This document shows, in pieces, positions 6,140-64,000 of a DNA stretch of 64,000 nt. The translations under genes and the position numbers were made by a program. The notes beneath the pieces are model-generated. The model saw only the letters and a program-made list of their open reading frames with translations. It was not told where the DNA came from and ran no database searches. Location of the stretch: positions 213,952-277,951 of the forward strand of contig CAVPXO010000012.1 in assembly GCA_963709755.1 (NCBI GenBank). The letters run 5' to 3'. Source of the DNA: an uncultured delta proteobacterium. GTDB taxonomy: Bacteria > Desulfobacterota > Desulfobulbia > Desulfobulbales > Desulfocapsaceae. Position 1 is the first letter of the stretch. Each line of letters starts with the position of its first letter.

Positions 6140-9288
<3,149 letters not shown>

Positions 9289-49018: not shown

Positions 49019-49034
49019 CGGCATCTTTCTTGCA
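49019..49034 (+). promoter_or_regulatory. Sigma-54 promoter of the nifV-like gene
   Basis: CGGCAT-CTTTC-TTGCA with correct GG-N10-GC spacing, 28 bp upstream of the ATG at 49063. Confidence 0.7.
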
Positions 49035-49062
49035 TCTTTCAGCATCACAGCGAGGAATACAG

Positions 49063-50202
49063 ATGACCCACAATTACAATATAATAGACACAACCCTTCG
49101 AGAGGGCGAACAAACACCCGGCCTGCTTTTTTCCCTGCCTGAGAAAAAACGTATCCTCGACGGTCTGGTCATGATCGGCGTAACTGAGGCTGAGCTTGGA
49201 ATCTCTTCCAGGTTTCATTCCTGTTCAGGTCCGCTCATCAACTACTGCAGAAAGAATCATTCGAATCTGAAACTGTCTCTCTGGAGCCGCTGCAGGAAAG
49301 AAGATATCATCCACGCCGTAAAACTCGGTCCTGACATCCTTTCACTCTCCGTGCCGGTTTCTGATATTCACCTGCAGGACCGATTGCACAAAGATCGTCT
49401 CTGGGCGCAAAAAACAATGGAGACAAGTATTGATTTTGCCAGGCAGGAAGGGCTGACGGTATCCATCGGATTTGAGGATGCAACGCGAAGTGATCCTGAA
49501 TTTTTAATAAAAATGGCAAAGGCTGCGGAGCAACATGGCGCAGCAAGAATTCGAATCGCCGACACTGTGGGCATAGCCTCCCCTGCTCAATTAGCAGGTC
49601 TCGTTACTACCTTGAAACAGGCCATAAATCATTGCCGGCTTGCAGTCCACACCCATAACGATTTTGGCATGGCCACAGCCAATGCCATAGCAGCCCTTGA
49701 AGCCGGGGCTTCATCGGTCGATGCTGTCGTTTTGGGCTTAGGTGAACGGACCGGCTGCGCCCGACTCGAGGAGATTGTCGGCTACCTCAGTCTGGCTAAG
49801 GGAATAACTGCGTTGAAGGCAGAGTACCTCAAACCGCTGGCACTTTATGTGGCTGGAATAACAGGAAGGAGCATCGCAGGCAACCGTCCGGTTATCGGCG
49901 ACGATATATTTACCTGCGAAACCGGCCTGCACCTGCAGGGACTTCAGAACAAGCCGCAAACTTATGAGCCATATAATCCTGAGAGGGTAAGGGCCAGGAG
50001 AAAGCTTCTTTTTGGTTCCAAAAGTGGCCGACGGGCAATTCTCCAGCGCATGAACCAGGTGGACAGCTCCTTCTCCGGAGAACTCACCGACCAGGCGATC
50101 CAATCAGTCAGGATGGAAGCAACCCGGTTACGACGTCCTCTCAGTGATTCGGAACTTATTCATCTTCTGACAGATCCTCCAGCTCTGTTTGGCCCTGACT
50201 GA
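49063..50202 (+). CDS. nifV: Homocitrate synthase (NifV-like, LeuA superfamily)
   Basis: DTTLREGEQTPG, EDATRSD, ADTVG, HTHNDFGMATAN, GLGERTG, FTCETGLH; no LeuA regulatory domain. Confidence 0.78.
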   Translation: MTHNYNIIDTTLREGEQTPGLLFSLPEKKRILDGLVMIGVTEAELGISSRFHSCSGPLINYCRKNHSNLKLSLWSRCRKEDIIHAVKLGPDILSLSVPVSDIHLQDRLHKDRLWAQKTMETSIDFARQEGLTVSIGFEDATRSDPEFLIKMAKAAEQHGAARIRIADTVGIASPAQLAGLVTTLKQAINHCRLAVHTHNDFGMATANAIAALEAGASSVDAVVLGLGERTGCARLEEIVGYLSLAKGITALKAEYLKPLALYVAGITGRSIAGNRPVIGDDIFTCETGLHLQGLQNKPQTYEPYNPERVRARRKLLFGSKSGRRAILQRMNQVDSSFSGELTDQAIQSVRMEATRLRRPLSDSELIHLLTDPPALFGPD

Positions 50203-50438: not shown

Positions 50439-50621
50439 TTGGTCGATTATGAGAAAAGGATGGCGAAACCTAAGCATTTAGTTCAGGAACTGAGGGATAT
50501 GGGTCTCTACCTCTTTAACAAAGTCAATTACACAAGGCATACTTCCCATATCGATCTTGACTTCCCCGTTTCAGATTTCGAGCACTTCCCGTCCAGTTCT
50601 TTGCATCCAGATGCCAGGTAG
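50439..50621 (+). pseudogene. Decayed paralogue of the small conserved protein at 53542-53910
   Basis: DYEKRMAKPKHLVQEL..LYLF..YTRH.S..DL..FEHFPSSS aligns with DYVRNLADCKRLVGEL..LCLF..YTRH.S..DL..FEHFPSGS; the N-terminal TM segment is lost. Confidence 0.7.
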
Positions 50622-50689
50622 TACCGCCTTATCAGCTGCTGAAAAAATAATCTTGTCTATGTGATATTGTAGAGGATACAAAATCTGAT

Positions 50690-51823
50690 ATGTTATGGAT
50701 TGAACGGCAGCGCGCTTTTCTGGATTTCACCCTTTCCTCCTTGTGGCGGCGAAAGACAAGAAATCTCTCACTCCTTTTTGTCTATGCGCTCGTTACCTTT
50801 CTTCTTTCCTCAGTGATCTTCTTTACCCATGCATTGCGGAAGGAAGCGGTGAAAGTTCTGGAAAATAGCCCGGAAATGATCGTTCAGCGCACCGTAAACG
50901 GCAGGCATTCCCTCATCCCTACAAGTTACGCAGAGAAAATCAAACAGATTCGTGGGACATCCTCAGTAAGACCGAGACTTTGGGGTTATTACTCTCACCC
51001 TGTATCCCTGGCAAACTATACCATTATGGTTCCGGAAAAATTTTCTCGGCCAGACGGCACTGTTGAAACTGGTGCAGGAGTATTGAGGACCTGGGGGCCA
51101 CTAAATGATGGAAAATTATATTTTAGAACCTATGACGGAAAGGTGATTGATCTCACGCCGATCAATACGATGGGAGAAGATACCGACCTTGTATCGTCAG
51201 ACCTGATCCTCATGTCTGAATCTACGTTTAGAAAAATTTCTGGTGTTCCGGAGGGCTACGCGACCGATCTCAGCGTCAACATTCGCAATAATCAGGAATC
51301 CGGAACCATCACAATGAAGATTGTCAAAGATCTCCCGGACACAAGGCCGATTCTGAAGGAGGACATCATCAGGACCTATGATTCTCTTTTTGACTGGCGC
51401 GGAGGATACGTTATCGTCCTTCTTTGGGGAGCTGCTCTTGCTTTCTTTATTTTCGCCTGGGACAGGGCAACGGGGCTTAGCGCTGAAGAGAAAACGGAGA
51501 TCGGTATCCTGAAAGGCATTGGCTGGGACACCTCGGACGTGCTGATGATGAAGTTCTGGGAAGGCGTGGTTATTTCAGTCTCAGCCTTTTTACTGGGAGT
51601 GATCTCAGCCTATATTCACATATATATCACTTCTGCGACCCTTTTTGAACATGCACTGAAGGGCTGGTCGATACTCTACCCGAAATTCACACTCAGTCCC
51701 TCCATAGATCCCTACCAATTGGCGATTCTCTTTTTTCTGACGGTAGTCCCTTACACTTTGTTGACCATTGTTGCCACGTGGAAAGTTGCTGTCACCGATC
51801 CGGATCTGGTAATGAGACATTGA
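50690..51823 (+). CDS. FtsX/LolE-like ABC transporter permease
   Basis: N-terminal TM, periplasmic domain, EKTEIGILKGIGW motif, three C-terminal TM segments. Confidence 0.85.
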   Translation: MLWIERQRAFLDFTLSSLWRRKTRNLSLLFVYALVTFLLSSVIFFTHALRKEAVKVLENSPEMIVQRTVNGRHSLIPTSYAEKIKQIRGTSSVRPRLWGYYSHPVSLANYTIMVPEKFSRPDGTVETGAGVLRTWGPLNDGKLYFRTYDGKVIDLTPINTMGEDTDLVSSDLILMSESTFRKISGVPEGYATDLSVNIRNNQESGTITMKIVKDLPDTRPILKEDIIRTYDSLFDWRGGYVIVLLWGAALAFFIFAWDRATGLSAEEKTEIGILKGIGWDTSDVLMMKFWEGVVISVSAFLLGVISAYIHIYITSATLFEHALKGWSILYPKFTLSPSIDPYQLAILFFLTVVPYTLLTIVATWKVAVTDPDLVMRH

Positions 51824-51824
51824 T

Positions 51825-52496
51825 ATGATTCAACTATCGGCAATAACCAAGACCTTTAATTCAGGAAAGGCTAATGAGTTTCAGGCCCTAAAGGAGATCG
51901 ATCTTGAGATTACCCTGAATGAGGTGACTGTGTTCGTCGGCCCCAGCGGGTCAGGGAAGACCACCCTTTTAAGTATTCTCGGATGCATGTCCAGGCCCAC
52001 TTCCGGAAGAATTTTGATGAATGGGCGAGAGATCACGAGTCTTCCTGAACGCTTTGCCGCTGGGATCAGGAGGGAGACTTTTGGCTTCATCTTTCAGAAT
52101 TTTAACTTGATCAAAGGAATTTCAGTATTGGAGAATACCATGTTTCCCGCCTACCCAACGGGGAAAAAATATCGGCTGGTCAGAGATCGGGCGGTATCCC
52201 TTCTGGAAAAGCTCGGAATTGGTTCCAAAGTTCAGGAGCAGGTGGAGCACCTCTCAGGTGGTGAACAGCAACGGGTCGCCATTGCCAGGGCCTTGATCAA
52301 CAGCCCCTCTATCATAATCGCCGATGAACCTACAGCCCATCTGGACACTGAACTCGCCCGGCAGCTTTTGGAAATTTTTTCCGGTATCAAGAACGAAGGA
52401 AATACCATCCTGATCGCCAGCCATGATTCCCTGGTCTTTGAATCCTCAATTACCGATCGTGTGGTCTCAATGCGGGATGGTGGGGTTGTGGAGTAA
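51825..52496 (+). CDS. LolD/FtsE-like ABC transporter ATP-binding protein
   Basis: GPSGSGKTT, FIFQNFNL, LSGGEQQR, ADEPTAHLD, SHD. Confidence 0.92.
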   Translation: MIQLSAITKTFNSGKANEFQALKEIDLEITLNEVTVFVGPSGSGKTTLLSILGCMSRPTSGRILMNGREITSLPERFAAGIRRETFGFIFQNFNLIKGISVLENTMFPAYPTGKKYRLVRDRAVSLLEKLGIGSKVQEQVEHLSGGEQQRVAIARALINSPSIIIADEPTAHLDTELARQLLEIFSGIKNEGNTILIASHDSLVFESSITDRVVSMRDGGVVE

Positions 52497-52532
52497 AATC
52501 AATTATACCGAATCCTAAAACGGAAACATAAT

Positions 52533-53531
52533 ATGTTGTTTAATCCCGCCATCATAGCCCTGATCTCCGGTTCCCTGCTGGTCACGGCCTTCGCATTTTA
52601 CGCCCTGCTCACCGCTCTTAGAATCTTGAAGCATTGGAATATCCAAAGCGGGAGCGAACTGCAACTGCTTCTGGAAAGAAAGACATATCTCATATCCACT
52701 GTTTGCACTTACGTGCTGGTGTTTGAACTTTTTTCCCTTATCCTGTTTATTGCTACCGCAGAACATATGCACGACTTGTTCGTTGGTGCAATGTGTGCGG
52801 CGGGATCTCTCAATATCAACGACTATGGCTACGTCACACTGGTTGTTAAAATCCTTACATTCGTTATCTGCGGTGTGTGGATGATCATCAATCACACGGA
52901 CAATCAGGCTCATGATTACCCGCTGATCCGTCCCAAGTATAAGCTTCTTATCCTTTTGACATTAATGATCGGCCTGGACACCATCCTTCAGATTAAATAT
53001 TTTATGGGGCTCAGGGCCGATGTGATTACATCCTGCTGCGGGATTATTTTCGGCGAGGAAAGCCAAGGTATAACGGGGAGCATGGCCGCCCTTGCCCCCT
53101 CTACCACCATGATCATTTTTTATGTAGTTCTTATCCTGACCATGAGGGTCGGGATCGGTTTCATTGTAACCGGCAGAGGCGCTGCAGTGTTTGGTCTTGC
53201 AGCGGGAGTGGCAACGGTTGTTTCTTTAGCTGCCGTGATCTCCTTCATCTCTGTTTACTATTATGAACTGCCTACCCATCACTGCCCCTTCTGCTTGCTT
53301 CAGAAGGATTATCACTACATCGGATACCCTCTTTACCTGTCTCTTCTTATGGCGGGCACTACCGGCATGGGGACAGGCGTGATTGAAAGATTGAAGGGCC
53401 CGCAGTCCCTTTCGACACTGATTCCTGCCTTACAGAGACGTTTCTGCCTTTTGTCCATGGGAGGATTTCTTGTTTTTACTTTGATCGCCAGCTACCCGAT
53501 ATTTTTCGCGGATTTTATACTGGACTCTTAG
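52533..53531 (+). CDS. Uncharacterised polytopic membrane protein with Cys/His motifs
   Basis: About 8 hydrophobic segments; GAMCAAG, ITSCCG and YYELPTHHCPFCLL motifs. Confidence 0.7.
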   Translation: MLFNPAIIALISGSLLVTAFAFYALLTALRILKHWNIQSGSELQLLLERKTYLISTVCTYVLVFELFSLILFIATAEHMHDLFVGAMCAAGSLNINDYGYVTLVVKILTFVICGVWMIINHTDNQAHDYPLIRPKYKLLILLTLMIGLDTILQIKYFMGLRADVITSCCGIIFGEESQGITGSMAALAPSTTMIIFYVVLILTMRVGIGFIVTGRGAAVFGLAAGVATVVSLAAVISFISVYYYELPTHHCPFCLLQKDYHYIGYPLYLSLLMAGTTGMGTGVIERLKGPQSLSTLIPALQRRFCLLSMGGFLVFTLIASYPIFFADFILDS

Positions 53532-53541
53532 TCTTTGCAGG

Positions 53542-53910
53542 TCATCTGGAAGTCTGAAGGGATCGCTGTTCCTTTTGGATGAGATGCTGAGGGGGCATGA
53601 CCATTGAACCGGATGGGAAATGTTCGAAGGCCATCGGAAAATCTTGAAATGGCGAGTGAAGATCGGCTTGGGAAAGATGCCTTGTGTAACGGGCCTCCGT
53701 AAAGAGGCAGAGATCAGTCAACTGAAGTTCTCCGACCAACCGTTTGCAATCGGCCAGGTTTCTCACATAATCATCTTTCTGGAGTCGGGGATGGATCAGG
53801 AAAAGCCCCGCCATAATCAGGCATGCTGCCGCGAAGGTGACCAGATATACACTTGACTTCCGGACCATTATTGCCAATTTTGGTAACCCACTGTTGTAGT
53901 ACTTCCTCAT
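53542..53910 (-). CDS. Small conserved membrane-anchored hypothetical protein
   Basis: One TM segment then LTDLCLFTEARYTRHLSQAD..FQDFP..FEHFPSG; a diverged copy at 50439-50621 supports it; start 53910 or 53868. Confidence 0.65.
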   Translation of the reverse strand: MRKYYNSGLPKLAIMVRKSSVYLVTFAAACLIMAGLFLIHPRLQKDDYVRNLADCKRLVGELQLTDLCLFTEARYTRHLSQADLHSPFQDFPMAFEHFPSGSMVMPPQHLIQKEQRSLQTSR

Positions 53911-53924
53911 TGATTAAACAGTCG

Positions 53925-54419
53925 TCAATCCAGTTTGCTGATCACCGCGGAAGTGATTTCCTCAAACCGGAGAATCCTTTTTCCTTTGTGATCCTTTAAT
54001 ACATTCCGTGCATCCTCTTCCGTGGCCAAAGGTATAAGTTCGTAGCCCATAGGACCAAAAACATTACTCCCGAGGACAAAAAATGCCTTCCTGGCGTCGA
54101 TCATTGTCATCTCATAGTAATCCATGACATAGATGGCGGCGATATCTTTCTTATTCTGGCCGGGCCGGTATTTGGCAGGGTTGAAGTAATACTTGAACAG
54201 GTCCTTTACGCCGTCAAAAAACTCGACTGAACCGTCTGAAAAAATAATTTCCGCTGTCCAGTCAGGATATTTATACACGAACATCCCACACACCGGACAT
54301 TTGTCTGTTTTGGAAGGCTCCACCATTCCTTTCTGCTGCGCAAGTCCCGTATCCGATATCAACAAGACAGCAGCCAGGACGACGGCCCGAAACAGATTTG
54401 CTCTATTCACCCGTATCAT
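53925..54419 (-). CDS. NosL-family copper chaperone-like protein
   Basis: Signal peptide, DKCPVCGMF, FFDGVKD, IDARKAFFVLGS..GPMG; start at 54419 has a GGAGG RBS. Confidence 0.82.
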   Translation of the reverse strand: MIRVNRANLFRAVVLAAVLLISDTGLAQQKGMVEPSKTDKCPVCGMFVYKYPDWTAEIIFSDGSVEFFDGVKDLFKYYFNPAKYRPGQNKKDIAAIYVMDYYEMTMIDARKAFFVLGSNVFGPMGYELIPLATEEDARNVLKDHKGKRILRFEEITSAVISKLD

Positions 54420-54518
54420 GCAGTACCAACCTCCAGTTTCGAAACGAGGGTTGATCATAAAAATCTGCGACCAACCCGTCATGGCAAAAATGTTTTACTT
54501 ACCCTTCTCCACTTCCTT

Positions 54519-55049
54519 TCAATTTTTTTTCATCTGGTGTTTCATCTTCCGCTTCTCTCGAATCATCTTGGTGTCCTGGTACATATCATCGTATGCGGCC
54601 TCCATGACCTGATCGAATCCTGCCAGAGCACCGCCGTTTTCCTTAATATATGCTTCTGCAGCTGGTTTTGTGCCAAAGGCCCATTTAGCCCGCTTGGTCA
54701 TCACACCCATTTTGTTGCCACCGATAACCCAGTATGCCGTCTCTGCATCTATCAACTGGCTGGTGTCATAGTCCCCTACCTCAATTTGCACTGGTGTTTT
54801 ATCGATATTCACAGCCAGATCGACGGCTGCACAATGGATAGAGCAGGTTCCAAGAGTGGAACCATCATCGAACGCTATAGAGACGCGGGAGTGGGAAAAT
54901 TTTTGCCGGTCCATTCCACAATAGGGGCACGAAGGATGTGCCGCAATATCGTCCTGTGCAAAAGCCTGACTACTGCACATCATTCCGAAAAAAGTTGCAC
55001 CCCCGGTTAAAAAACTAACAGACAGAGCAAAAATTACCAGTCCTTTCAT
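54519..55049 (-). CDS. NosL-family copper chaperone-like protein
   Basis: Signal peptide ending AFA, CPYCGM, CSIHC, LIDAETAYWVIGG..GVM, Met/His-rich tail. Confidence 0.8.
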   Translation of the reverse strand: MKGLVIFALSVSFLTGGATFFGMMCSSQAFAQDDIAAHPSCPYCGMDRQKFSHSRVSIAFDDGSTLGTCSIHCAAVDLAVNIDKTPVQIEVGDYDTSQLIDAETAYWVIGGNKMGVMTKRAKWAFGTKPAAEAYIKENGGALAGFDQVMEAAYDDMYQDTKMIREKRKMKHQMKKN

Positions 55050-55136
55050 GGGATTCTCCTTTGATAAAATGAGTTAAACGTTTTCATGCCAGATTGTTAC
55101 GGTCCTTCTGCCAAGTAGAGTACACAGAGGACATTT

Positions 55137-58100
55137 TCACTGATTTGAAGGATGCAGTGATCCTTTGCTCTCTATTTTTGTCAGCTCAATGTTTTTTTCC
55201 GCATTTCCTTTCATCCTGTTTTCCCGGATGCCGCAATACAACACCGGCACTATCAACATGGTCACAATCTCCAGGCTCATGCCTCCCAAGGTCGGGATGG
55301 CCATGGGCACCATAATATCCGATCCACTTCCGGTGGACGTCAGGATCGGGAGCAGGGCCAGCACTGTGGTGGCAGTAGTCATCAAACAGGGCCGCACCCG
55401 CCGCAGGCAGGCCTCGATAGTAGCATGGCGAATCTCCTGGACCGTGGCTGTCTTCCTTTCAGCAAAGGCACCATTTAGGTACGTTGCCATGACCACCCCG
55501 TCATCCGAGGCAATACCGAAAAGGGCCAGGAATCCCACCCATACAGCCACGCTCAAATTAATCGGGTGGACCTGAAACACATCCCGCATTGAGGTTCCAA
55601 AGACACTGAAATCAAGAAACCAGGGCTGACCATACAACCAGATCATGATAAAGCCGCCGGCCCAGGCAACGGCCACTCCGGAAAAGACCAGGACACTGGT
55701 TGAAACGGATTTAAATTGCAGATAGAGTATGATGAAGATAATCAAAAGAGCCAGTGGCAGGATTAAACTCAGCTTTTTGTCAGCCCGCACCTGGTTTACA
55801 TAATTCCCGGTAAAAGTAAAGCTGACGCCGGCCGGTAGCTGCAGCTCGCCGTTGTCGATTTTCTCCAGGAGATAGTCCCGTGCCTCCTCAACCACGTTGG
55901 TTTCAGCCCTGTCTGCTTTTTTGTCGAAGAGCACATAGCCGACAAGAAATGTATTCTCACTTTTTATCATCTGGGGACCGGCCACAGACCGCAGGTCGGC
56001 CAACTGCACCAGGGGTATCTGGGTACCATTCGGGGCAGGTACCATCACTTTGCCTATGTTATCGAGGTTATCCCGTAGTTCGCGCATGTATCTGACGCGC
56101 ACAGGGTATCGTTCCCGCCCCTCAACGGTGGTAGTGATCTGTTTGCCGCCGATCGCAATTTCGATAACATCCTGTACCTGCTGCAAGTCAATTCCGTACT
56201 GGGCGATGGCACGCCGGTCGATGTCGATCTCCAGATACGGCTTGCTGACAATCTGATCGGCAATTACCGACAGGGGATCGACCGAGGGAACTTCCCGGAT
56301 ATATTTTTCGATGCGACGCGTCACCTCTTCGATGGTTTGCAAATCAGGACCGTAGACCTTAATCCCCATATTTGCCCGGATACCGCTTTGCAGCATCACC
56401 ATACGCGCCGAGATGGGCTGAAGCTTTGGTGCCACCGTTGTCCCCGGAATGGATGCCCCCTTGACGATTTCTCGCCAGATGTCATCCGGTTGCACGATAC
56501 CTGCCCAGGCTTTGCGGCCTTGATTGATGTCGGTATCCAAGGCCGGACGCCACAATCGGAAGGGGCAGCCCTGGTCGTCGGGGATCAGTTTGTTGTCACT
56601 GTCTCGTTCAAACTTTCCACGAACATGGTACGGTTTGCCATCCGGGGCAGGGAGGGGGTAGCCTCGCTCATCACGGAAAAAATCAAGCTCGTCCGGGGTG
56701 AAACGAAACTGTACGGGTCGCCCTTTGGCATTCAGTCGAAACTCGGGTGCGTAATTAATGAGGGTCTCGATCATAGAGATAGGAGCCGGATCAAGTGGAC
56801 TTTCAACCCTTCCCAGTTTGCCCACCGCCGATTCCACCTCAGGTATCGCCTGGATCGCGCGATCCTGCCGCTGCAGGATGTCAAGCACCTCACCGATGGA
56901 GGCATGGGGCATGGTCACCGGCATATACAGGTAAGCACCCTCATCCAGCGGCGGCATAAATTCCTTGCCTATGCCGGGAAATTTTTCGGTCAGATAGATA
57001 AACGGCGTGGAGTTGGTAACCAGCCGGGGCAGCCAGCCGAAAATGGTGCCGTACCCTTGCCAGATCATACCGCCAAACAGCACCGCCAACAGCGGCAGGG
57101 CCAGAAAAAGAGCTTTGTGCTCCAGGCACCACCCCAATATCCTTGGATAAAAGCGATGAAACAATCCAAAGGCGGCGATAACCCCGCCAATGAGCAGCCC
57201 AACAAAAATAAAATTATGCACGATCCCCTTCTCAGCTCCCAGGGGCTGCCAGGATCGGGTCAAAACCAATGTCACCGCCAGCACAATGAGGCCGCTGGTC
57301 AACAGTCGCACCCTGCGTGCGGACTCCGCTGGAAGCCGCAGTATCAGAAGGTTACAGCCGCCAATGACGGCTACGAAGAGGCCCACCTGCCAATCCAACA
57401 CGAACGCCAGCACTCCCCCAAGATAAATCAATCCTTCGTAAAAAATCCAACCGTGTTGTTGGCGGCCGGCTTTGCGGTTGAACAGGGCATGGGCCAGGGG
57501 TGGTATAACACACAGGGCGATGATCAGTGAGGCCAGCAGGGTAAAGGTTTTGGTAAACGCCAGCGGTCTGAAGAGTTTTCCTTCGGCCGCCACCATGGTA
57601 AATACCGGCAGGAAACTGACGATGGTGGTGGATACAGCCGTCAGGACAGCCCCGCCCACCTCGCTTGCCGCCCGCACAACAACAGCCGTGCGATCTTCCT
57701 GTGGTGTGGCCTGGGCCAGACGGCGCATAATATTTTCGGTCAGGATGATGCCCATGTCGACAATGGTCCCGATGGCAATGGCGATCCCCGAAAGGGCAAC
57801 GATGTTGGCATCCACTCCGAAGATCTTCATGGCGATAAAACAGAGCAGTACCGCGAGCGGCAGCAGCCCTGAAATTATAATCGAGCTCCCCAGGTGCGCC
57901 ATCATCACGATTACCACAATGATGGTGACCAGCATTTCCTTGGAGAGGGCAGAACTGAGTGTGTTGAGGGTTTCCTGGATCAGATCGGTACGGTCATAGA
58001 AGGGAACGATTTTTACCTGGCTGAGCGTGCCGTCGGCCAGGGTTCTTTTGGGCAGCCCCAGCGCTATTTCATCAATTTTCTTTTTAACCCGGCTGATTAC

Positions 58101-59087
58101 CTCCAGCGGGTTCTCGCCGTAGCGCACAACCACAACTCCGCCGACCGCTTCCATGCCGCCTTTGTCCAGAGCGCCCCGCCGTGAGGCAGGCCCCATGGTC
58201 ACATTGGCCACATCCCCTACCAGCACGGGAGTTGCCCCTTCCAGCTTGATAGAGGAATCGCGAATATTGTCGAGAGATTTGATAAACCCCAGACCTCGGA
58301 TAACGTATTCGACCTTATTGATCTCAATCGTGCGCGCCCCTACGTCAACATTGGCCCGACGCACGGCGCTCACCACTTGGGCCAGACTGATGTTGTGATA
58401 CCTTAAGAGGTCCGGGTCTACATCGATCTGGTATTCCGCCACAAACCCACCGACCGAGCCCACTTCGCTGACGCCCGGCACCGACATCAGAGCATAGCGC
58501 ACATACCAGTCCTGGATACTGCGTAACTCGTGCAAGTCCCAGCCACCTGCAGGATTTCCGTCGGAGCCGATACCTTCCAGGGTGTACCAGAACACCTGGC
58601 CCAGGGCCGTGGCATCCGGTCCCAGGGTTGGCTTGACCCCTTCGGGTAACTCGCGGGCCGGCAAACTGTTGAGATTCTCCAGCACCCGTGTCCGGGCCCA
58701 GTAAAAATCGACGCCATCCTCGAAGATGACGTACACCAGGGAAAACCCGAACATCGAGTAACTGCGGATGGTCTTCACCCCGGGGACGCCCAGCAGGGAT
58801 GCCGAGAGCGGATAGGTGATCTGGTCTTCGATGTCCTGGGGAGAACGGCCGGTCCATTCAGAAAAGACGATCTGCTGGTTTTCGCCAATGTCGGGGATGG
58901 CATCCACCGGCACCGGATCGCGCCACATCCCGCCGAGCTGCCAGTCAAACGGGGCCACTACCAGTCCCCAGCCAATCAGGATAACGACTGCCAGAAAAAC
59001 GATCATCCGGTTTAGCATACAGAAGCGGATGATGGTTCCGAGCCAGGAGGATGTGGAGTGAGGTTGCGGATTAAAATCTTCAGTCAT
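55137..59087 (-). CDS. cusA: CusA/CzcA family heavy-metal RND transporter, long form
   Basis: VDAIPDIGENQ, QITYPL, GATPV..VVVRYGENP, GIAIAIGTIVD, EFMPPLDEG, RPCLMT, MAIPTLGG. Confidence 0.9.
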   Translation of the reverse strand: MTEDFNPQPHSTSSWLGTIIRFCMLNRMIVFLAVVILIGWGLVVAPFDWQLGGMWRDPVPVDAIPDIGENQQIVFSEWTGRSPQDIEDQITYPLSASLLGVPGVKTIRSYSMFGFSLVYVIFEDGVDFYWARTRVLENLNSLPARELPEGVKPTLGPDATALGQVFWYTLEGIGSDGNPAGGWDLHELRSIQDWYVRYALMSVPGVSEVGSVGGFVAEYQIDVDPDLLRYHNISLAQVVSAVRRANVDVGARTIEINKVEYVIRGLGFIKSLDNIRDSSIKLEGATPVLVGDVANVTMGPASRRGALDKGGMEAVGGVVVVRYGENPLEVISRVKKKIDEIALGLPKRTLADGTLSQVKIVPFYDRTDLIQETLNTLSSALSKEMLVTIIVVIVMMAHLGSSIIISGLLPLAVLLCFIAMKIFGVDANIVALSGIAIAIGTIVDMGIILTENIMRRLAQATPQEDRTAVVVRAASEVGGAVLTAVSTTIVSFLPVFTMVAAEGKLFRPLAFTKTFTLLASLIIALCVIPPLAHALFNRKAGRQQHGWIFYEGLIYLGGVLAFVLDWQVGLFVAVIGGCNLLILRLPAESARRVRLLTSGLIVLAVTLVLTRSWQPLGAEKGIVHNFIFVGLLIGGVIAAFGLFHRFYPRILGWCLEHKALFLALPLLAVLFGGMIWQGYGTIFGWLPRLVTNSTPFIYLTEKFPGIGKEFMPPLDEGAYLYMPVTMPHASIGEVLDILQRQDRAIQAIPEVESAVGKLGRVESPLDPAPISMIETLINYAPEFRLNAKGRPVQFRFTPDELDFFRDERGYPLPAPDGKPYHVRGKFERDSDNKLIPDDQGCPFRLWRPALDTDINQGRKAWAGIVQPDDIWREIVKGASIPGTTVAPKLQPISARMVMLQSGIRANMGIKVYGPDLQTIEEVTRRIEKYIREVPSVDPLSVIADQIVSKPYLEIDIDRRAIAQYGIDLQQVQDVIEIAIGGKQITTTVEGRERYPVRVRYMRELRDNLDNIGKVMVPAPNGTQIPLVQLADLRSVAGPQMIKSENTFLVGYVLFDKKADRAETNVVEEARDYLLEKIDNGELQLPAGVSFTFTGNYVNQVRADKKLSLILPLALLIIFIILYLQFKSVSTSVLVFSGVAVAWAGGFIMIWLYGQPWFLDFSVFGTSMRDVFQVHPINLSVAVWVGFLALFGIASDDGVVMATYLNGAFAERKTATVQEIRHATIEACLRRVRPCLMTTATTVLALLPILTSTGSGSDIMVPMAIPTLGGMSLEIVTMLIVPVLYCGIRENRMKGNAEKNIELTKIESKGSLHPSNQ

Positions 59088-59149
59088 GGTTGATTAGCAT
59101 AGTATGATGTTGAGAGCGAATAGCGTCGGTTTCCTTCCTGTTTTGCTCT

Positions 59150-60759
59150 TCACTGTTTCGTCTGCTGCGGCGCCATTTCCATATCCATCTTCATGCCTGA
59201 GATTTCACTTTCAAGGTCCTGCATCGCTTCACCGCCTACATGAGTCATCATGCTGGTCCCGGCCAGGATCTGGATTGCGCTATCAATCTTAAAATTCCCG
59301 TTAACCACAACCTTTTCGCCTTCCCGCAACCCTTCCCGCACCACGTAATACCCCTTGGCCCTGGGACCCAGAAGCACTACCCGGCCTTCATACGTCCCGG
59401 GTTCGCCCGCCACCTCCACATAGACTACTGCCCGTTTACCGGTGATCATCGGAGCGGTCTCAGGTATCGTCAGCGTCTTGTTCTGCTCCGCGCTCTGTCT
59501 GCTGTCCACCCTGTATCCCGGTATCAAGGAAGCATGCATCGTACCGCGGACCAGCATCCCCGGCTTTAATTTTCCCTGATGAGCGGAACAGAGAACCCCT
59601 ACCTTGAATGTATGCGTTTTATCATCAAAATCAGGATCAAGGTATATCACTTCACCTGTGAAGATCTCGCCCGGATAGGCATCTGAGCGAAATTCGGCTT
59701 TCTGGCCAAGCTTGATCCAGGGAAAATCTGATTCGAAGGCGTCAAACATCGCCCACACATATCGAGGGTCAGCGATGGTGAAGACAGAATCCCCGGTGTT
59801 CAGGTACATGCTTTTAAACGCATCCTGTTTCTGAACAATGCCGGGAATTGGTGTCAATTCCGTTCGGATACCGGTTGGCCATCCCCGGCTGATGATCCCG
59901 TCGACCTCGGCTTCAGTAAGCCCCAGCGATCCTATTTCACGTCGGATTCTGACGACCTCGGCCGTGATTGCCTGTTCCTCTTCCGCAGCTTATCTCCTGT
60001 TCCTTGTCAGCTTTGGCCGGCTGCACCACAGAAGGCCCCGGTCGGCCCCGCCTCACAGGGGGTGGACCGCTGGGCTTCCACATCCACGGCTGGACCCACT
60101 GCTTGAAACGTTGTCCTACTGCCGGCCGGTTTGCAACAAAGCCGGGAAGTTTTTCGAGGGTCGCAAACAGCTCCTGCTCCAGAAAATAAAGATCTACCGA
60201 ATACAGATCAAACAGGGCGTCGCCGGTTTTAACAGTCTCTCCTGCACGTTTGACGTAGATTTCATCGATCACCCCCGGCGCAAACGCAGTCACCTTGTAC
60301 TGGTAGGCGGGGTCATACTCAACCCTGCCGAACAGCCGGACCTCCGCGGAAACCGCCCTTTTTTCCACCGTTGCGACCTGAATTCCGGCGGCCTTGACAC
60401 CCTCTTCGGTAAGATGCAGCCTGGACGAACCTTCTTCATGCCGGTGTCCCTGAGCCTCCGCCGCCACCAGATCCATGCCGCACACCGGGCACTTGCCTGG
60501 CTGTTCCATGGGAGGCACGCAATTCATCGGGCAGACGTAGACTGTTGTCCTCTTTTGGCATCGCAGGTGGAGGCTGGGTACCCTGATCCTCATTGCCTGG
60601 TTGCATAATGCCGGACATGGGATGTTCGTCCGCTACCGGATGACTCGCCTCCGAATTATCGCCGTGCATGGTATAACCGATGCTGATGCCGACCATTACT
60701 GCCGCCAGAATCATAAGCAGAATTTTTTTTGAACCCAGATATTTCTTTATTTTTTCCAT
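59150..60759 (-). CDS. cusB: CusB-like RND periplasmic adaptor with heavy-metal-binding domain; two frameshifts
   Basis: Pieces 60759-~60570 (TM), ~60570-59990 (CPMNC..PGKCPVCGMDL) and ~59990-59150 (IAD...GEK VVVNGNFKIDS, Met-rich tail) join with indels near 60555-60590 and ~59990. Confidence 0.8.
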
Positions 60760-60870
60760 GGCCTCTAGTGCATCAATGAATTGCGGGAAGGGAATCAAAC
60801 ATCAGGCATCCACTACGATGAAAAAGCCCCTGCCGGCATCCTTGGCTTTTTGCCTGTCAAGATGCCGCAT

Positions 60871-60899
60871 ATTGTAATCCAAGGTTTTTTCAAATGCAA
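60871..60899 (-). promoter_or_regulatory. Putative sigma-70 promoter of the cusB-cusA-nosL operon
   Basis: Minus strand reads TTGCAT-N17-TACAAT. Confidence 0.4.
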
Positions 60900-61139
60900 T
60901 TTTATAATAATATCAGTGAAAAGCATTCGATTCAGTGATCATCTTAAAAAACCACAGGCCGCCTGAACGAAACAATATAATGCGGTTCTATGCTTGAACC
61001 ATAAGCCGCGGTGGGGATAGGCAGATAAATAAGCGCCAGTATCATGACAAGTCGGCCAGTATCCGGCAGCTGCAACACCATTAAGCGACAAAGGGAGAGA
61101 AACCGAAGTCCCTCTCCCTTGTTTATAAAGAGCTTTGTA

Positions 61140-61170
61140 AAAATAACGGGGAAGGGATTATTCCCTCCCC
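61140..61170 (-). terminator. Terminator after the multicopper oxidase gene
   Basis: GGGGAGGGA-ATAA-TCCCTTCCCC followed by GTTATTTTT on the minus strand; second hairpin AAGGGAGAG/CTCTCCCTT at 61091-61120. Confidence 0.55.
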
Positions 61171-61192
61171 CATCAAACCACTTCCTCCATAG

Positions 61193-64000
61193 TTAGTTTC
61201 GTGTCACCGTCACCGGTGTCGGCGCCGGAGTCCAGGCACTGGAGCCAAGGATATTATTGGCCCTGACCTGCATGTAGACAGAAGTTCCCGCGGTACCACC
61301 CACATTGATCTGCTGAACTCGAGGTGACACCGTTAACCTGAGTTGCCGGAGCCATTGTCGAGCTGTTTGACCAGAGGATGCTGTAGCTGGACGCACCAGG
61401 CACGGCGAGTCCAGTTCAGACCCGCTGTCCTTTGTCCGCCGCGTGTGCCATTGGCCGCAGTAACGTCAGACGGAGCTGCCGGAAGGGCCATGGCTATGGA
61501 CGCCGAAGTTGCGAAGGCCGACAGCCCCCCGCCGTTTACCGCCGCTACCCGGTAAATATAGCTGTTACCAAGCACCACGGTTGGGTCAGAAAAGCTCACA
61601 CTCCCGGTATTGTTGCGAGCCGGGGCTGTGCCGATCTGGGTGAAGGTCGCACCGCTGTCCGAGGGAACGTTCGATGACAAACCCGTTCTCGTTGGTGGCG
61701 TTGTCCTGCCAGGTCAGGTTGACCCGCGGCCCTGCCGCTATAATGGCAGTCAGGGAGGTCGGCGCTGCTGGAAGTTGGCCGTTGCCGCTGAGTACGGAGC
61801 TGGACACAGACTGCGCGCTCACACTCATAAACTCGCCTCCGTAGCCCACTGTGTTGACCGCTGCCACACGATAGCCGTAGACTGTGTTGCCAATACCACT
61901 GTCGGTCAGGGTAAGGGCGTTACCCGCTGTGTTCGGCACGGCGAGCAGCTGCAGGACAGGTGTGCCGACATTCGTCCAGTTAATACTGTCCGCGGACCGC
62001 TGCAGCTGGAAAGACGTTTCTGTCAGGGAGTTGTCGGTGAAGGACACATTTACCCTGTTGCCTTTTCCTGCAGTAAGTGTTCCGATTATCGGCTCTTTCG
62101 GCGGCAACGCCACGGAAACAGGCCGCATCATATCCATCTCCTCATGGCTGAGGATATGGCAGTGCCACACGTACTCCAAACCATAGTTGACGAGCTGGTT
62201 TTCGATCGGAGCGGTAGGATTACCGGCGGCATCGACGTTATTGAAGCCCATTAATGACCCAAGCGGCATCATCGGATGCAGCGGCCGAACGCTGTTGGGC
62301 AGCTCCCATGGCAGATCAGGAATGATTGGCCTGAGGGCCACGATCGTGTCCTCCAGCGGGCTCACCCGCAGCGTATCTTTCCAGCCGAGTTCGGTTGGAT
62401 CCGGCGGGCTGATGATATTATCCCAGGTTACCCGGTTGAGCACCTGCACATCGTAGAGATGCCAGTGGAGCGGATGAGTGTCCACACCATTATGGGTGAT
62501 CTTCCAGATCTGTGTCCCGTCCGCCGAGCTGATCGGGCTGATAGGTTTCATAGTCGTGATATTATTCTTTGGCAGATTGGTAGCATCGAACATCTCCGTC
62601 GGTGGGTTGACAAACGGGTAAAGAATGATGTTCTGAGCCGCCGGTGTGGCCGGCACGGCCTCAACACCGATATTTGCCGACATTCTGCCGAACTCGTCGA
62701 AAGCTGAGGCGTTCATCTCGTCATGAATTGCCTTCGGTTCGATCATAATCTCCAGCTTGCCTGCCGGATCCAGCAGGGTGTTAAAGCCGAACAGGGTTCC
62801 GCCCTGGTTGTTGATGCGGAGATGGCCGTCACAAACGGTGCTGGTGCTGCCGCCGTTGCAGTCGCCACTTGCGGAAAAGTTCGTGCCGTATGCCGAGTTG
62901 TACTCTGCCTGCCCAACAATGATCGGATGCTGTGCGGATTCGAATACTCCAGAACCGTCCGCCTTGTGTTTGAATGCATTCTTGAAGTAGCGCTCAGGTT
63001 GAAAGCAGATGCCGCGGTGTTCCCGCAACCTTCACCTGCATGACCGTGCGGGTGTTGGGGCCGTAGCCGGGCAGGATTGAAGGTGCACCTACCGGGGTCA
63101 GATCCGGGGCGCCGGTATAGTAATCATAGCTAGCAACCCTTGCCGGAAATGCAGCAGGGGCGTCATTATAAAGAATAAGCGTCTGGCCGGCAAACTTCGA
63201 GAAGTCGACAATTACGTCGAACCGCTCGGCGGGTGCCACCAGCAGCGAATGTTGATCGACGTTGCCGACGTTAAAGACGGTCGGGTCGATGATCCATGTG
63301 GTCGGCTGGGCCGGAACAACGACCGGGGCCGGCAGGAAGCCGCCCTCGGAACCGATAACGATCCAGTCAGGACCGGCCGGGCTGACGCTGGTGTCCGGCG
63401 TCGGGAAAATATTCGGGTCAAGCTGGGCGGCTGCCAGCTCAGCGGGATTAAGTGCTACCTCAGTGGGTCCGATCGCCACATCGGTTTCACTATTCGGATC
63501 AGCCACATACCAGGAGAAGTTGAAGAACCGGTCGTTGGCCGCGTTCAGGATGCGCAGTCGATAAGCCTTGGGCTCCACCGTGGTGGTGGGGTAGGCCGTG
63601 CCGTTGACGATGGGCGTATCGTTGAACTGCTCCATACCCACGGAGATATTCGGCGTACCGGGGATTTTCTCCGGCTCACAGAAGGGGTCGGTCTCGTATT
63701 GCCAGGTGGTAGGATCGTTGATGTTGCAGGCAGCGCCAATGGTGTCTGCCAACATCTGTATGTCGGATCATATTATAATACGGATTGGCAATCGGTCCGT
63801 ACGGTGGTGTTGCCGGTGGCCAGAACCACGGTCCGTACATCCAGCGGCCGAAGGGGCTCATGCCCGTTGCGTCGCCAGGATTCTGGGCCGGCATATAGAC
63901 ATGATGATACCAGAAATTGCCCATGCCACCCCAGCTTGCGGTATCCCAGGTCGGGTCCTGCCAGTCCAGCTGGTCGGTGCCCGGCACAAAGGTCCGGTCT
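61193..64000 (-). CDS. OmpB/MofA-type multicopper oxidase with C-terminal fibronectin type III repeats; 5' end outside the window, several frameshifts
   Basis: DRTFVP, YRLRILNAANDRF, APAERFDVIVDF, HPLHWH and WHCHILSHEEMDM copper motifs; Fn3 patterns W.DN..NE.GF.IERS and Y.YRVAAVN spread over ORFs 63676-63987, 62994-63755, 61586-63028, 61333-61680 and 61193-61396. Confidence 0.82.

Follow-up and report, generated by a model that had tools for sequence, protein, structure and literature searches.

In the NosDFYL system, the ATP-binding cassette (ABC) transporter is thought to act mechanically on periplasmic partners and not to carry a solute (PMC8457098, PMC7558416, PMC13068155). For the FetABCDEF proteins of Campylobacter, E. 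coli and Salmonella, both the substrate of the ABC transporter and the biochemical role of the system are still without assignment (PMC10783030, PMC7285068), and for multicopper oxidases (MCOs), helper proteins of the CopG/CutG type aid copper loading (PMC7558416, section 6.5). Here we analyze a locus with likenesses to each of these systems, found at positions 50,439 to 64,000 of a 64,000-nucleotide (nt) stretch of DNA, hereafter the window, from an uncultured delta proteobacterium of the family Desulfocapsaceae (GenBank assembly GCA_963709755.1, contig CAVPXO010000012.1, positions 213,952 to 277,951). How strict anaerobes manage copper is poorly understood; in the absence of oxygen Cu(I) becomes more toxic, and sulfides keep the metal bound until oxygen enters. 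The locus consists of two parts, which are (A) a conserved six-gene module encoding two NosL-type proteins (NosL185 and NosL176), a small membrane protein (small122), an FtsX-like permease, an ABC ATPase and a membrane protein with an HHCPFC motif (HHCPFC), and (B) an adjoining segment of higher guanine plus cytosine (G+C) content that carries the CusBA pump and a large MCO. We consider it very likely that the first of these parts is a conserved copper-related periplasmic module.

The six-gene module and its proteins

A scan with one genome per species returned at least 573 confirmed matches to the module, mostly in Desulfobacterota and Nitrospirota (Thermodesulfovibrionales) and also in relatives of Geobacter, with Pelotalea chapellei DSM 13688 and Desulfoferrobacter suflitae DRH4 among the cultured carriers. 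Across the best 80 loci, the co-directional order NosL176-NosL185-small-FtsX-ABC-HHCPFC is the rule. Neighboring genes were counted within 10 kb of the module in the 36 loci that are well flanked (at least 9 kb upstream and at least 6 kb downstream), and in this set the small protein and the FtsX permease are each present at all 36 loci, the ABC ATPase at 35, the NosL185-type protein at 33 and the NosL176-type protein at 25. Dozens of species share this grouping, which therefore lies far beyond what chance would produce.

The neighborhood of the module shows a nested pattern. A CusA gene lies within range at 20-21 of the 36 well-flanked loci, depending on the score cut applied (8 of a long type and 12 of the regular type), and an MCO gene at 10-11 of the 36, each of which also has CusA, while 15-16 have neither. 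An MCO without CusBA is found at none of the well-flanked loci and at a single short-flank locus among all 80. Other recurrent neighbors are subtilases (the one in locus L002 also bears a MopE copper-binding domain), thioredoxin-like, YtkA-like and DUF2318 proteins, and sigma-54 activators. A CopA-type ATPase was not found within the flanks of any of the 36 loci, and no mer, ars or czc-specific genes recur near the module.

A first-pass annotation made from the sequence of the window had proposed that the NosL, FtsX-ABC and HHCPFC genes form an undescribed module that is independent of nos genes and linked to copper genes. The gene order at the 80 loci bears out a genuine conserved module, the counts of CusBA and MCO neighbors bear out the copper-gene linkage, and its independence of nos is upheld by the absence of NosZ or NosD from the recurrent neighbor families of those 80 loci. 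In the literature on NosL with ABC transporters, CusA, anaerobes and the Fet/P19 systems, we found no paper on the module.

The copper assignment begins with the NosL-type proteins. Mutagenesis of S. denitrificans NosL identified C62, M64 and M145 as Cu(I) ligands essential for copper transfer, and the Zn ligands C59, C88 and D92 vary between NosL proteins (PMC8457098). NosL185, which likely starts at M22 (54419), aligns with the NosL proteins of P. stutzeri and S. denitrificans and retains the equivalents of C59, C62, M64, D92 and M145, such that CPVCGM and GPMG in NosL185 stand opposite CHLCGM and GAMG; an aspartate occupies the position of C88 in the Zn ligand set. NosL176 is more divergent; it carries CPYCGM, GTCSIHC and GVMT motifs, and its C-terminal tail is basic. 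Its CxxCGM and GVM elements are kept as judged by motif, since the alignment to solved NosL is only partial, and a CSxHC motif stands in place of the NosL Zn ligands. Read by eye, the two Sec signal peptides end in GLA (followed by QQ) and AFA (followed by QDD), and neither protein has a canonical lipobox. At four loci from Nitrospirota and relatives (L028, L038, L047 and L050), a gene for a TlpA/AhpC-type thioredoxin-like protein replaces the NosL176-type gene directly upstream of NosL185, a placement that hints at a thiol-redox step in the system.

The FtsX-like permease has 377 amino acids (aa) and, as read from the sequence, consists of one N-terminal transmembrane (TM) segment, a periplasmic domain of ~190 aa and three C-terminal TM segments, with a conserved RLWGY motif. 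A sequence search of the PDB found no close solved structure (LolC, E 0.29). Its partner ATPase scores 194.9 bits against LolD (equivalog cutoff 307.75) and 187.3 bits against FtsE, both below the equivalog cutoffs, and for this reason membership of the type VII (MacB/LolCDE) ABC group is assigned at the superfamily level only.

HHCPFC has eight predicted TM helices and a striking set of invariant residues, namely C88 (in GAMCAAG), C113, C168 and C169 (in ITSCCG), H249, H250, C251 and C254. Counted on the alignment, the family consensus holds 12 lysine or arginine residues in the even-numbered loops versus 2 in the cysteine-bearing loops, and on this basis the three cysteine loops are predicted to be periplasmic. 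No Pfam or NCBIfam model matches HHCPFC, and when 15 members of the family were scanned against Pfam at E values up to 10, nothing beyond noise appeared. The relatives, of which a protein collection contains more than 4678, are all named 'hypothetical' and have no Pfam domain, and a profile search of 1.8 billion representatives returned 1094 clusters at 50% identity, all of them standalone proteins of ~330 aa. The AlphaFold2 (AF2) model of HHCPFC has a predicted local distance difference test (pLDDT) score of 65, with values below 50 in the cysteine loops, and a Foldseek comparison to the PDB with this mediocre model as the query gave nothing with E<1.

The small protein, like HHCPFC, is matched by no Pfam or NCBIfam model, and it belongs to a family of 4059 relatives, none of which is named or has a Pfam match. 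Because these relatives measure ~100-103 aa, translation of small122 likely starts at M15 (53868). A single TM helix is followed by an invariant C-terminal tail, LTDLCLFTEARYTRH...FQD.P...EHFPSGS. The AF2 model consists of one long TM helix with the conserved tail at low confidence, as would be expected of a segment that docks to a partner.

The locus in the window

Every gene named in the first-pass annotation was recovered in place on the open reading frame (ORF) map and in the Pfam and NCBIfam scans (Table 1). Its description of these genes as one island holds in that they lie together, but they form two convergent blocks and not a single operon, and a terminator-like hairpin precedes cusB. 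Likewise, the one small YTRH/FEHFP protein that it listed is present as an intact gene, but a second, degenerate copy lies at the upstream end of the locus. The genes nosZ, nosD, nosF and nosY, noted as missing from the outset, are indeed absent among the window ORFs scanned (the genes in ~31.8-64 kb and the ORFs of at least 380 aa in 6-31 kb).

Table 1 Features of the locus in the window.
Feature	Position (nt)	Strand	Evidence
Small-protein remnant, 60 aa, degenerate	50439-50621	+	48% identity to small122, E 2e-14
FtsX-like permease	50690-51823	+	Pfam FtsX 29.6 bits (cutoff 25.5), 8e-7
LolD/FtsE/MacB-group ABC ATPase, 223 aa	51825-52496	+	ABC_tran 1.5e-32
HHCPFC membrane protein, 332 aa	52533-53531	+	ORF reading, HHCPFC motif
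Small protein (small122), 122 aa, ARYTRH...FEHFP	53542-53910	-	ORF reading
NosL185, NosL-type, CPVCGM	53925-54482	-	PF05573 115.4 bits (cutoff 24)
NosL176, second NosL-type, CPYCGM	54519-55049	-	PF05573 49.0 bits (cutoff 24)
Long-form CusA, 1316 aa	55137-59087	-	TIGR00914 763.8 bits (cutoff 701.45)
CusB adaptor, three reading frames in this assembly	59150-60798	-	HlyD_D23 and HMBD matches on two ORFs
Terminator-like hairpin, oxidase/cusB gap	61144-61175	-	14-bp stem and T run, consensus match
Large multicopper oxidase, 3' two-thirds, off window edge	61333-64000	-	Cu-oxidase and Cu-oxidase_2 matches

The convergent arrangement of the module is a derived one. In the window, as in the related loci L164, L165 and L166, FtsX-ABC-HHCPFC runs in the opposite orientation to NosL-NosL-small; the next relative, L003, is collinear. 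The remnant of the small-protein gene has neither the TM segment nor the invariant cysteine and occupies the place, directly before the FtsX gene, that the small-protein gene has in the canonical order; together with the intact copy it forms an inverted repeat (50504-50578 and 53639-53713, 75 nt, 73% complementary), and L166 has a comparable remnant upstream of its own FtsX gene (7775-7909). The remnant is probably the scar of an inversion that split the operon in this clade, and an old event of this kind would have broken the module into its two convergent blocks.

The pump of the adjoining segment is recognizable as a CusA, an RND pump of the Cu(I)/Ag(I) type. Aligned with E. coli CusA (3K07), the window protein keeps M573, M623 and M672 of the three-methionine Cu(I) site. 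Two additions, both conserved in 13 loci, distinguish it: one more TM segment (aa 533-704 relative to E. coli CusA) and, in the periplasmic part, an insertion of 53 aa. This long form exceeds the regular CusAs of related loci by ~100 aa, and its periplasmic insertion bears the motif PF(R/P)LWRPxLD. CusB has an N-terminal TM segment and an HMBD (YVCPMNCV...CPVCGMDL). Pfam scans of the 50-64 kb region revealed no outer-membrane factor (CusC) and no CusF. The G+C content rises from ~47-49% to ~55-60% at ~55400-56200, within the 3' part of cusA and away from any gene boundary, which suggests a recombination joint inside the gene.

The MCO of the window is collinear with aa 675-1519 of its orthologue in locus L048 and ends in a C-terminal FN3-like region. 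The L048 protein has 1594 aa, an fn3 domain and a Sec signal. The OmpB/MofA-type label given to the oxidase in the first-pass annotation stands for MCOs of more than 1000 aa with cupredoxin and FN3-type domains that are exported to the cell surface; on its Cu-oxidase domains and the features of the L048 orthologue, the oxidase is a candidate for this type, with a putative surface or secreted location. Between the oxidase and cusB, a stretch of low G+C content (43%) comes after the hairpin and probably contains the cusB promoter. The oxidase appears to be a transcription unit of its own, apart from cusB.

Both genes of part B other than cusA are broken in this assembly. A tblastn comparison with intact orthologues places two frameshifts in cusB, dividing it into an N-terminal membrane anchor, an HMBD/first half and a second half; the frame changes between 60132 and 59989, and the N-terminal TM segment lies in a third frame. 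The same approach with the L048 protein resolves the oxidase into four frames separated by three frameshifts, near 63754/63728, 63006/62977 and 61661/61656. In L164, whose proteins are ~80-85% identical to those of the window (84.7% for CusA), both genes are single intact ORFs encoding a CusB of 533 aa and an MCO of 1420 aa. The five frameshifts must therefore be peculiar to this genome or to its assembly, as either real decay or local assembly error. Their sites are not long homopolymers, and a search of public sequencing runs found none that contains the sequence. All five are bunched within ~4.3 kb, and cusA (4 kb) and all other genes examined are intact, including all six genes of the module.

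Across the related loci, two unrelated types of MCO occur near the module. One comprises large proteins (1200-1600 aa) that contain FN3 or FG-GAP domains, the other two-domain-like proteins of ~360-450 aa encoded as tandem triplets. Many are co-directional with the module (for example in L008, L062, L004, L060 and L070). The examples inspected have Sec-type signal peptides without a twin-arginine motif, and for this reason they must take up copper after export. Some loci form one-strand superclusters. That of L008, for example, starts with a repeat protein and three MCO-like genes, continues with the gene for a secreted protein of 164 aa and with the module (NosL, NosL, small, FtsX, ABC and HHCPFC), and ends with CusB and long CusA. 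Upstream of the module in L008 (9-6545) lie the repeat protein, which has 734 aa, is rich in glycine and asparagine and has no Pfam match, and the tandem secreted MCO-like genes of 415, 448 and 360 aa, the second of which has WHSH where HCH is expected. The 164-aa secreted protein, to which no family could be assigned, recurs in 9 loci by clustering and in 12 by phmmer.

Outside the locus, the scanned ORFs encode housekeeping functions (ClpS/ClpA, RmuC, IMP dehydrogenase, GMP synthase, ribosomal protein S1, an ammonium transporter and a homocitrate-synthase-like protein). The gene for the last of these (NifV/HMGL-like, 49030-50202) lies directly upstream of the module, next to genes for an MFS transporter and a PHP-domain protein, and the window showed no further nif genes.

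A proposed copper hand-over and rival explanations

A fundamental question is what such a module would do with copper in the periplasm. We hypothesize that it serves general Cu(I) capture and hand-over in copper homeostasis together with CusBA, a reading to which we assign a probability of roughly one half. A homeostatic role is favored because loci with an MCO nest within those with CusBA, and these in turn within the module loci, because many loci have neither, and because the module is intact beside a broken oxidase. The sequences show gene content, gene order, conserved Cu ligands and co-localization; we infer copper as the substrate, the formation of a complex, the ATP-driven hand-over and the direction of flow, and the mechanism itself is drawn by analogy from the action of NosFY on NosD and NosL (PMC13068155). 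In this model, the two Sec-exported NosL proteins would take periplasmic Cu(I) onto their Cys/Met sites, and the loaded protein would then dock on the periplasmic face of a complex of the ABC transporter, the small protein and HHCPFC. The small single-pass membrane protein would contribute its invariant periplasmic Cys/His motif, and HHCPFC would offer its cluster of invariant cysteines and histidines to the periplasm. Hydrolysis of ATP in the cytoplasm would drive a conformational change that forces the release of tightly bound Cu(I), and the acceptor could be the HHCPFC cysteine cluster, CusB or an apo-oxidase. The chief output would be controlled removal or buffering of Cu(I) along with CusBA, with MCOs, where present, as an additional partner or recipient. 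The structural details behind this analogy reportedly come from work on NosDFYL published in 2022.

Several observations weigh against copper hand-over with CusBA as stated. The assignment of copper is drawn entirely from NosL homology and from neighboring genes, and the copper-responsive regulators CueR, CsoR and CusRS are not seen as recurrent neighbors. Control by sigma-54 was considered and rejected, as the upstream regions of the module at 54 loci show no enrichment of -24/-12 promoters and the window locus has none. The periplasmic domain of the FtsX permease has no conserved Cys/His/Met cluster or other metal ligands. The link to the pump was also approached from the opposite direction, with the long-CusA insertion as a probe, which gave 179 confirmed metagenome matches. 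Among the 80 metagenome loci fetched in this way (L083-L162), module genes occur at only ~9 and ~70 are without the module, so the long CusBA is not an obligate or dedicated partner of the module, and the long CusA was rejected in that role. Moreover, an MCO lies beside CusBA at 11 of 20 module loci that have CusA versus 1 of 16 well-flanked long-CusA loci without the module (p about 0.01 by Fisher test on a cluster-based tally of 10/21 versus 1/16), a contrast between two differently sampled collections, with counts that ignore shared ancestry, which is to be read as a lead and not as proof. This contrast suggests that the MCO is associated with the module and not simply with CusBA, and it favors a specific link between module and MCO over a generic resistance island.

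This last point leads to an alternative hypothesis, close to what the first-pass annotation had proposed, in which the module is a nos-independent, ATP-powered pathway dedicated to the copper loading of Sec-exported MCOs, that is, a second maturation machine of the NosDFYL kind for which CusBA supplies or balances the Cu(I) pool. Beyond the enrichment beside CusBA, MCOs of two unrelated types are found repeatedly beside the module and often point in its direction, Sec-type MCOs need copper after export, the MCO of L164 has changed to the opposite side of the module and yet remained within the locus, and NosL is known to donate copper in a cuproenzyme assembly line that is coupled to an ABC transporter (PMC8457098, PMC7558416). 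On the other hand, 25-26 of the 36 well-flanked loci have no MCO within 10 kb, 15-16 have neither MCO nor CusBA, and no MCO stands without CusBA in this set; in the window, the oxidase is frameshifted three times beside an intact module and is parted from cusB by the terminator-like hairpin, apparently as a separate transcription unit, and the supporting counts are the phylogeny-uncorrected ones described above. That so many loci have neither partner, and that the module of the window is intact while both the oxidase and cusB are broken, argues against a role of the module tied to one oxidase. Detoxification or homeostasis with CusBA accounts for the nested pattern no less well, and we regard dedicated oxidase loading as the main rival, but as unlikely. 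Somewhat more doubtful still is its most specific form, in which a NosD-independent, ABC-powered machine built of two NosL proteins, a type VII ABC transporter and HHCPFC would metallate the Sec-exported MCOs of anaerobes, with CusBA feeding or balancing Cu(I).

The cysteines of HHCPFC also invite a reading in which the module is mainly a thiol/disulfide or redox relay and this protein acts as a membrane oxidoreductase, similar in logic to DsbB, VKOR or CcdA, that keeps periplasmic cysteine metal sites in the correct redox state. The CxxC, the CC and the single invariant cysteines in loops predicted to face the periplasm would suit such a function, and thioredoxin-like proteins of the TlpA/AhpC type are encoded next to or near the module in 7 loci, including the four in which they directly precede NosL (L028, L038, L047 and L050). 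DUF2318 proteins adjoin FtsX or HHCPFC in 4 loci, and the FetABCDEF proteins, with their 8-TM cysteine-rich protein, ABC transporter and periplasmic thioredoxins, have been proposed to form a redox relay (PMC10783030). However, HHCPFC has no detectable homology to DsbB, VKOR, CcdA or DUF2318, the window has no thioredoxin gene, strictly anaerobic carriers need little periplasmic disulfide repair, and the tight linkage to NosL and CusBA is left unexplained unless the relay serves copper handling. We therefore consider a redox relay improbable, and give a similarly low chance to a thiophilic substrate other than copper, such as Ag(I), Hg(II), Cd/Zn, a metal sulfide or a polysulfide. The CC and CxxC pairs of the membrane proteins resemble those of Mer transporters, and Ag(I) is also exported by pumps of the CusA type. 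The NosL fold and its treble-clef motifs are shared with MerB and TRASH domains (PMC10114901), but the Cu(I) ligands particular to NosL are retained here, and the neighbors are a three-methionine CusA and MCOs, with no recurrence of genes for mercury, arsenic or Czc-type resistance. Finally, one could argue from the window by itself, with its convergent blocks of differing G+C and its two broken genes, that the grouping is meaningless and the genes mere neighbors; but dozens of species, drawn from several phyla, have the six genes side by side and mostly on one strand, with neighbors enriched in copper genes, and this leaves next to no room for such a view.

Significance and comparison with known systems

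A module found in hundreds of species, with two protein families that have no annotation, provides a testable candidate for the movement of Cu(I) through the periplasm. If its ABC transporter does act mechanically on NosL-type chaperones, the principle of NosDFYL would reach beyond N2O reductase. A practical consequence is that PF05573 (NosL) matches in sulfidic anaerobes should not be taken as markers of N2O reduction in metagenome surveys. What appears to be new here is a candidate ABC-coupled periplasmic copper chaperone system that includes two unannotated protein families.

Among known systems, NosDFYL is nearest in logic, as both encode an ABC transporter together with a Cu(I) chaperone of the NosL type, and the Cys/Met ligands of the chaperone are the same. 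The module differs in that it includes no NosD beta-helix protein, NosZ, NosF or NosY, its ABC transporter is of the FtsX/LolD type, it has two NosL paralogues without a lipobox, and it adds the two unannotated membrane proteins small122 and HHCPFC. Its carriers are sulfate- and metal-reducing anaerobes, and CusBA is its usual neighbor. The CusCFBA system of E. coli shares the three-methionine CusA with an adjacent CusB, and in it a soluble chaperone for periplasmic Cu(I) cooperates with the pump, as proposed here. In contrast, the present locus has no CusF or CusC, its CusA carries the extra TM segment and periplasmic insertion, and its putative chaperones are of the NosL type and come with an ABC system.

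Nearest in parts list is FetMP-FetABCDEF (P19), which combines an 8-TM cysteine-rich protein, a TRASH/YHS-like metal-binding module and an ABC transporter, and whose periplasmic thioredoxins and DUF2318 proteins have counterparts in some related module loci. The window has no FetM or FetP, and HHCPFC has neither the DUF2318 nor the YHS domain, whereas the 8-TM protein FetA has both; the Fet system is iron-regulated and serves iron uptake, and the two are set apart here on these features. Pco/Cop and CutFOG resemble the locus in that an MCO is encoded with periplasmic copper-binding proteins and an inner-membrane protein. Homologues of PcoB/C/D, CopC/D, CutF and CopG were not detected in the locus, the oxidase is an FN3-bearing protein of more than 1400 aa, and an ABC transporter is present.

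The type VII ABC transporters MacB, LolCDE and FtsEX resemble the module in pairing a LolD/FtsE-like ATPase with a permease that has an FtsX domain and a large periplasmic domain. The module's version is very divergent, as seen in its marginal similarity to LolC, has no MacB_PCD match, and consists of a single permease gene without an adaptor of its own. A further parallel is the DUF2318-FtsX-ABC cluster on plasmid pPRO1 of Pelobacter propionicus, which likewise places a cysteine-rich protein, an FtsX permease and an ABC ATPase within a metal island; it is also uncharacterized, but belongs to a cultured strain. Its FtsX protein is only 25% identical, in the FtsX domain alone, and the cluster has no NosL, small122 or HHCPFC. 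This locus (L163, 11352-27773 of the pPRO1 record), reached by tblastn with a DUF2318 protein, encodes a metal-sensitive regulator, a heavy-metal P-type ATPase, an HMBD protein, an HMA protein, DUF2318, FtsX, ABC, an M23 peptidase, a kinase, a sigma-54 regulator, TolC, MFP and CusA. FtsX-type ABC transporters paired with cysteine-rich, periplasm-facing proteins may thus be a recurring and as yet unexplained theme of metal loci.

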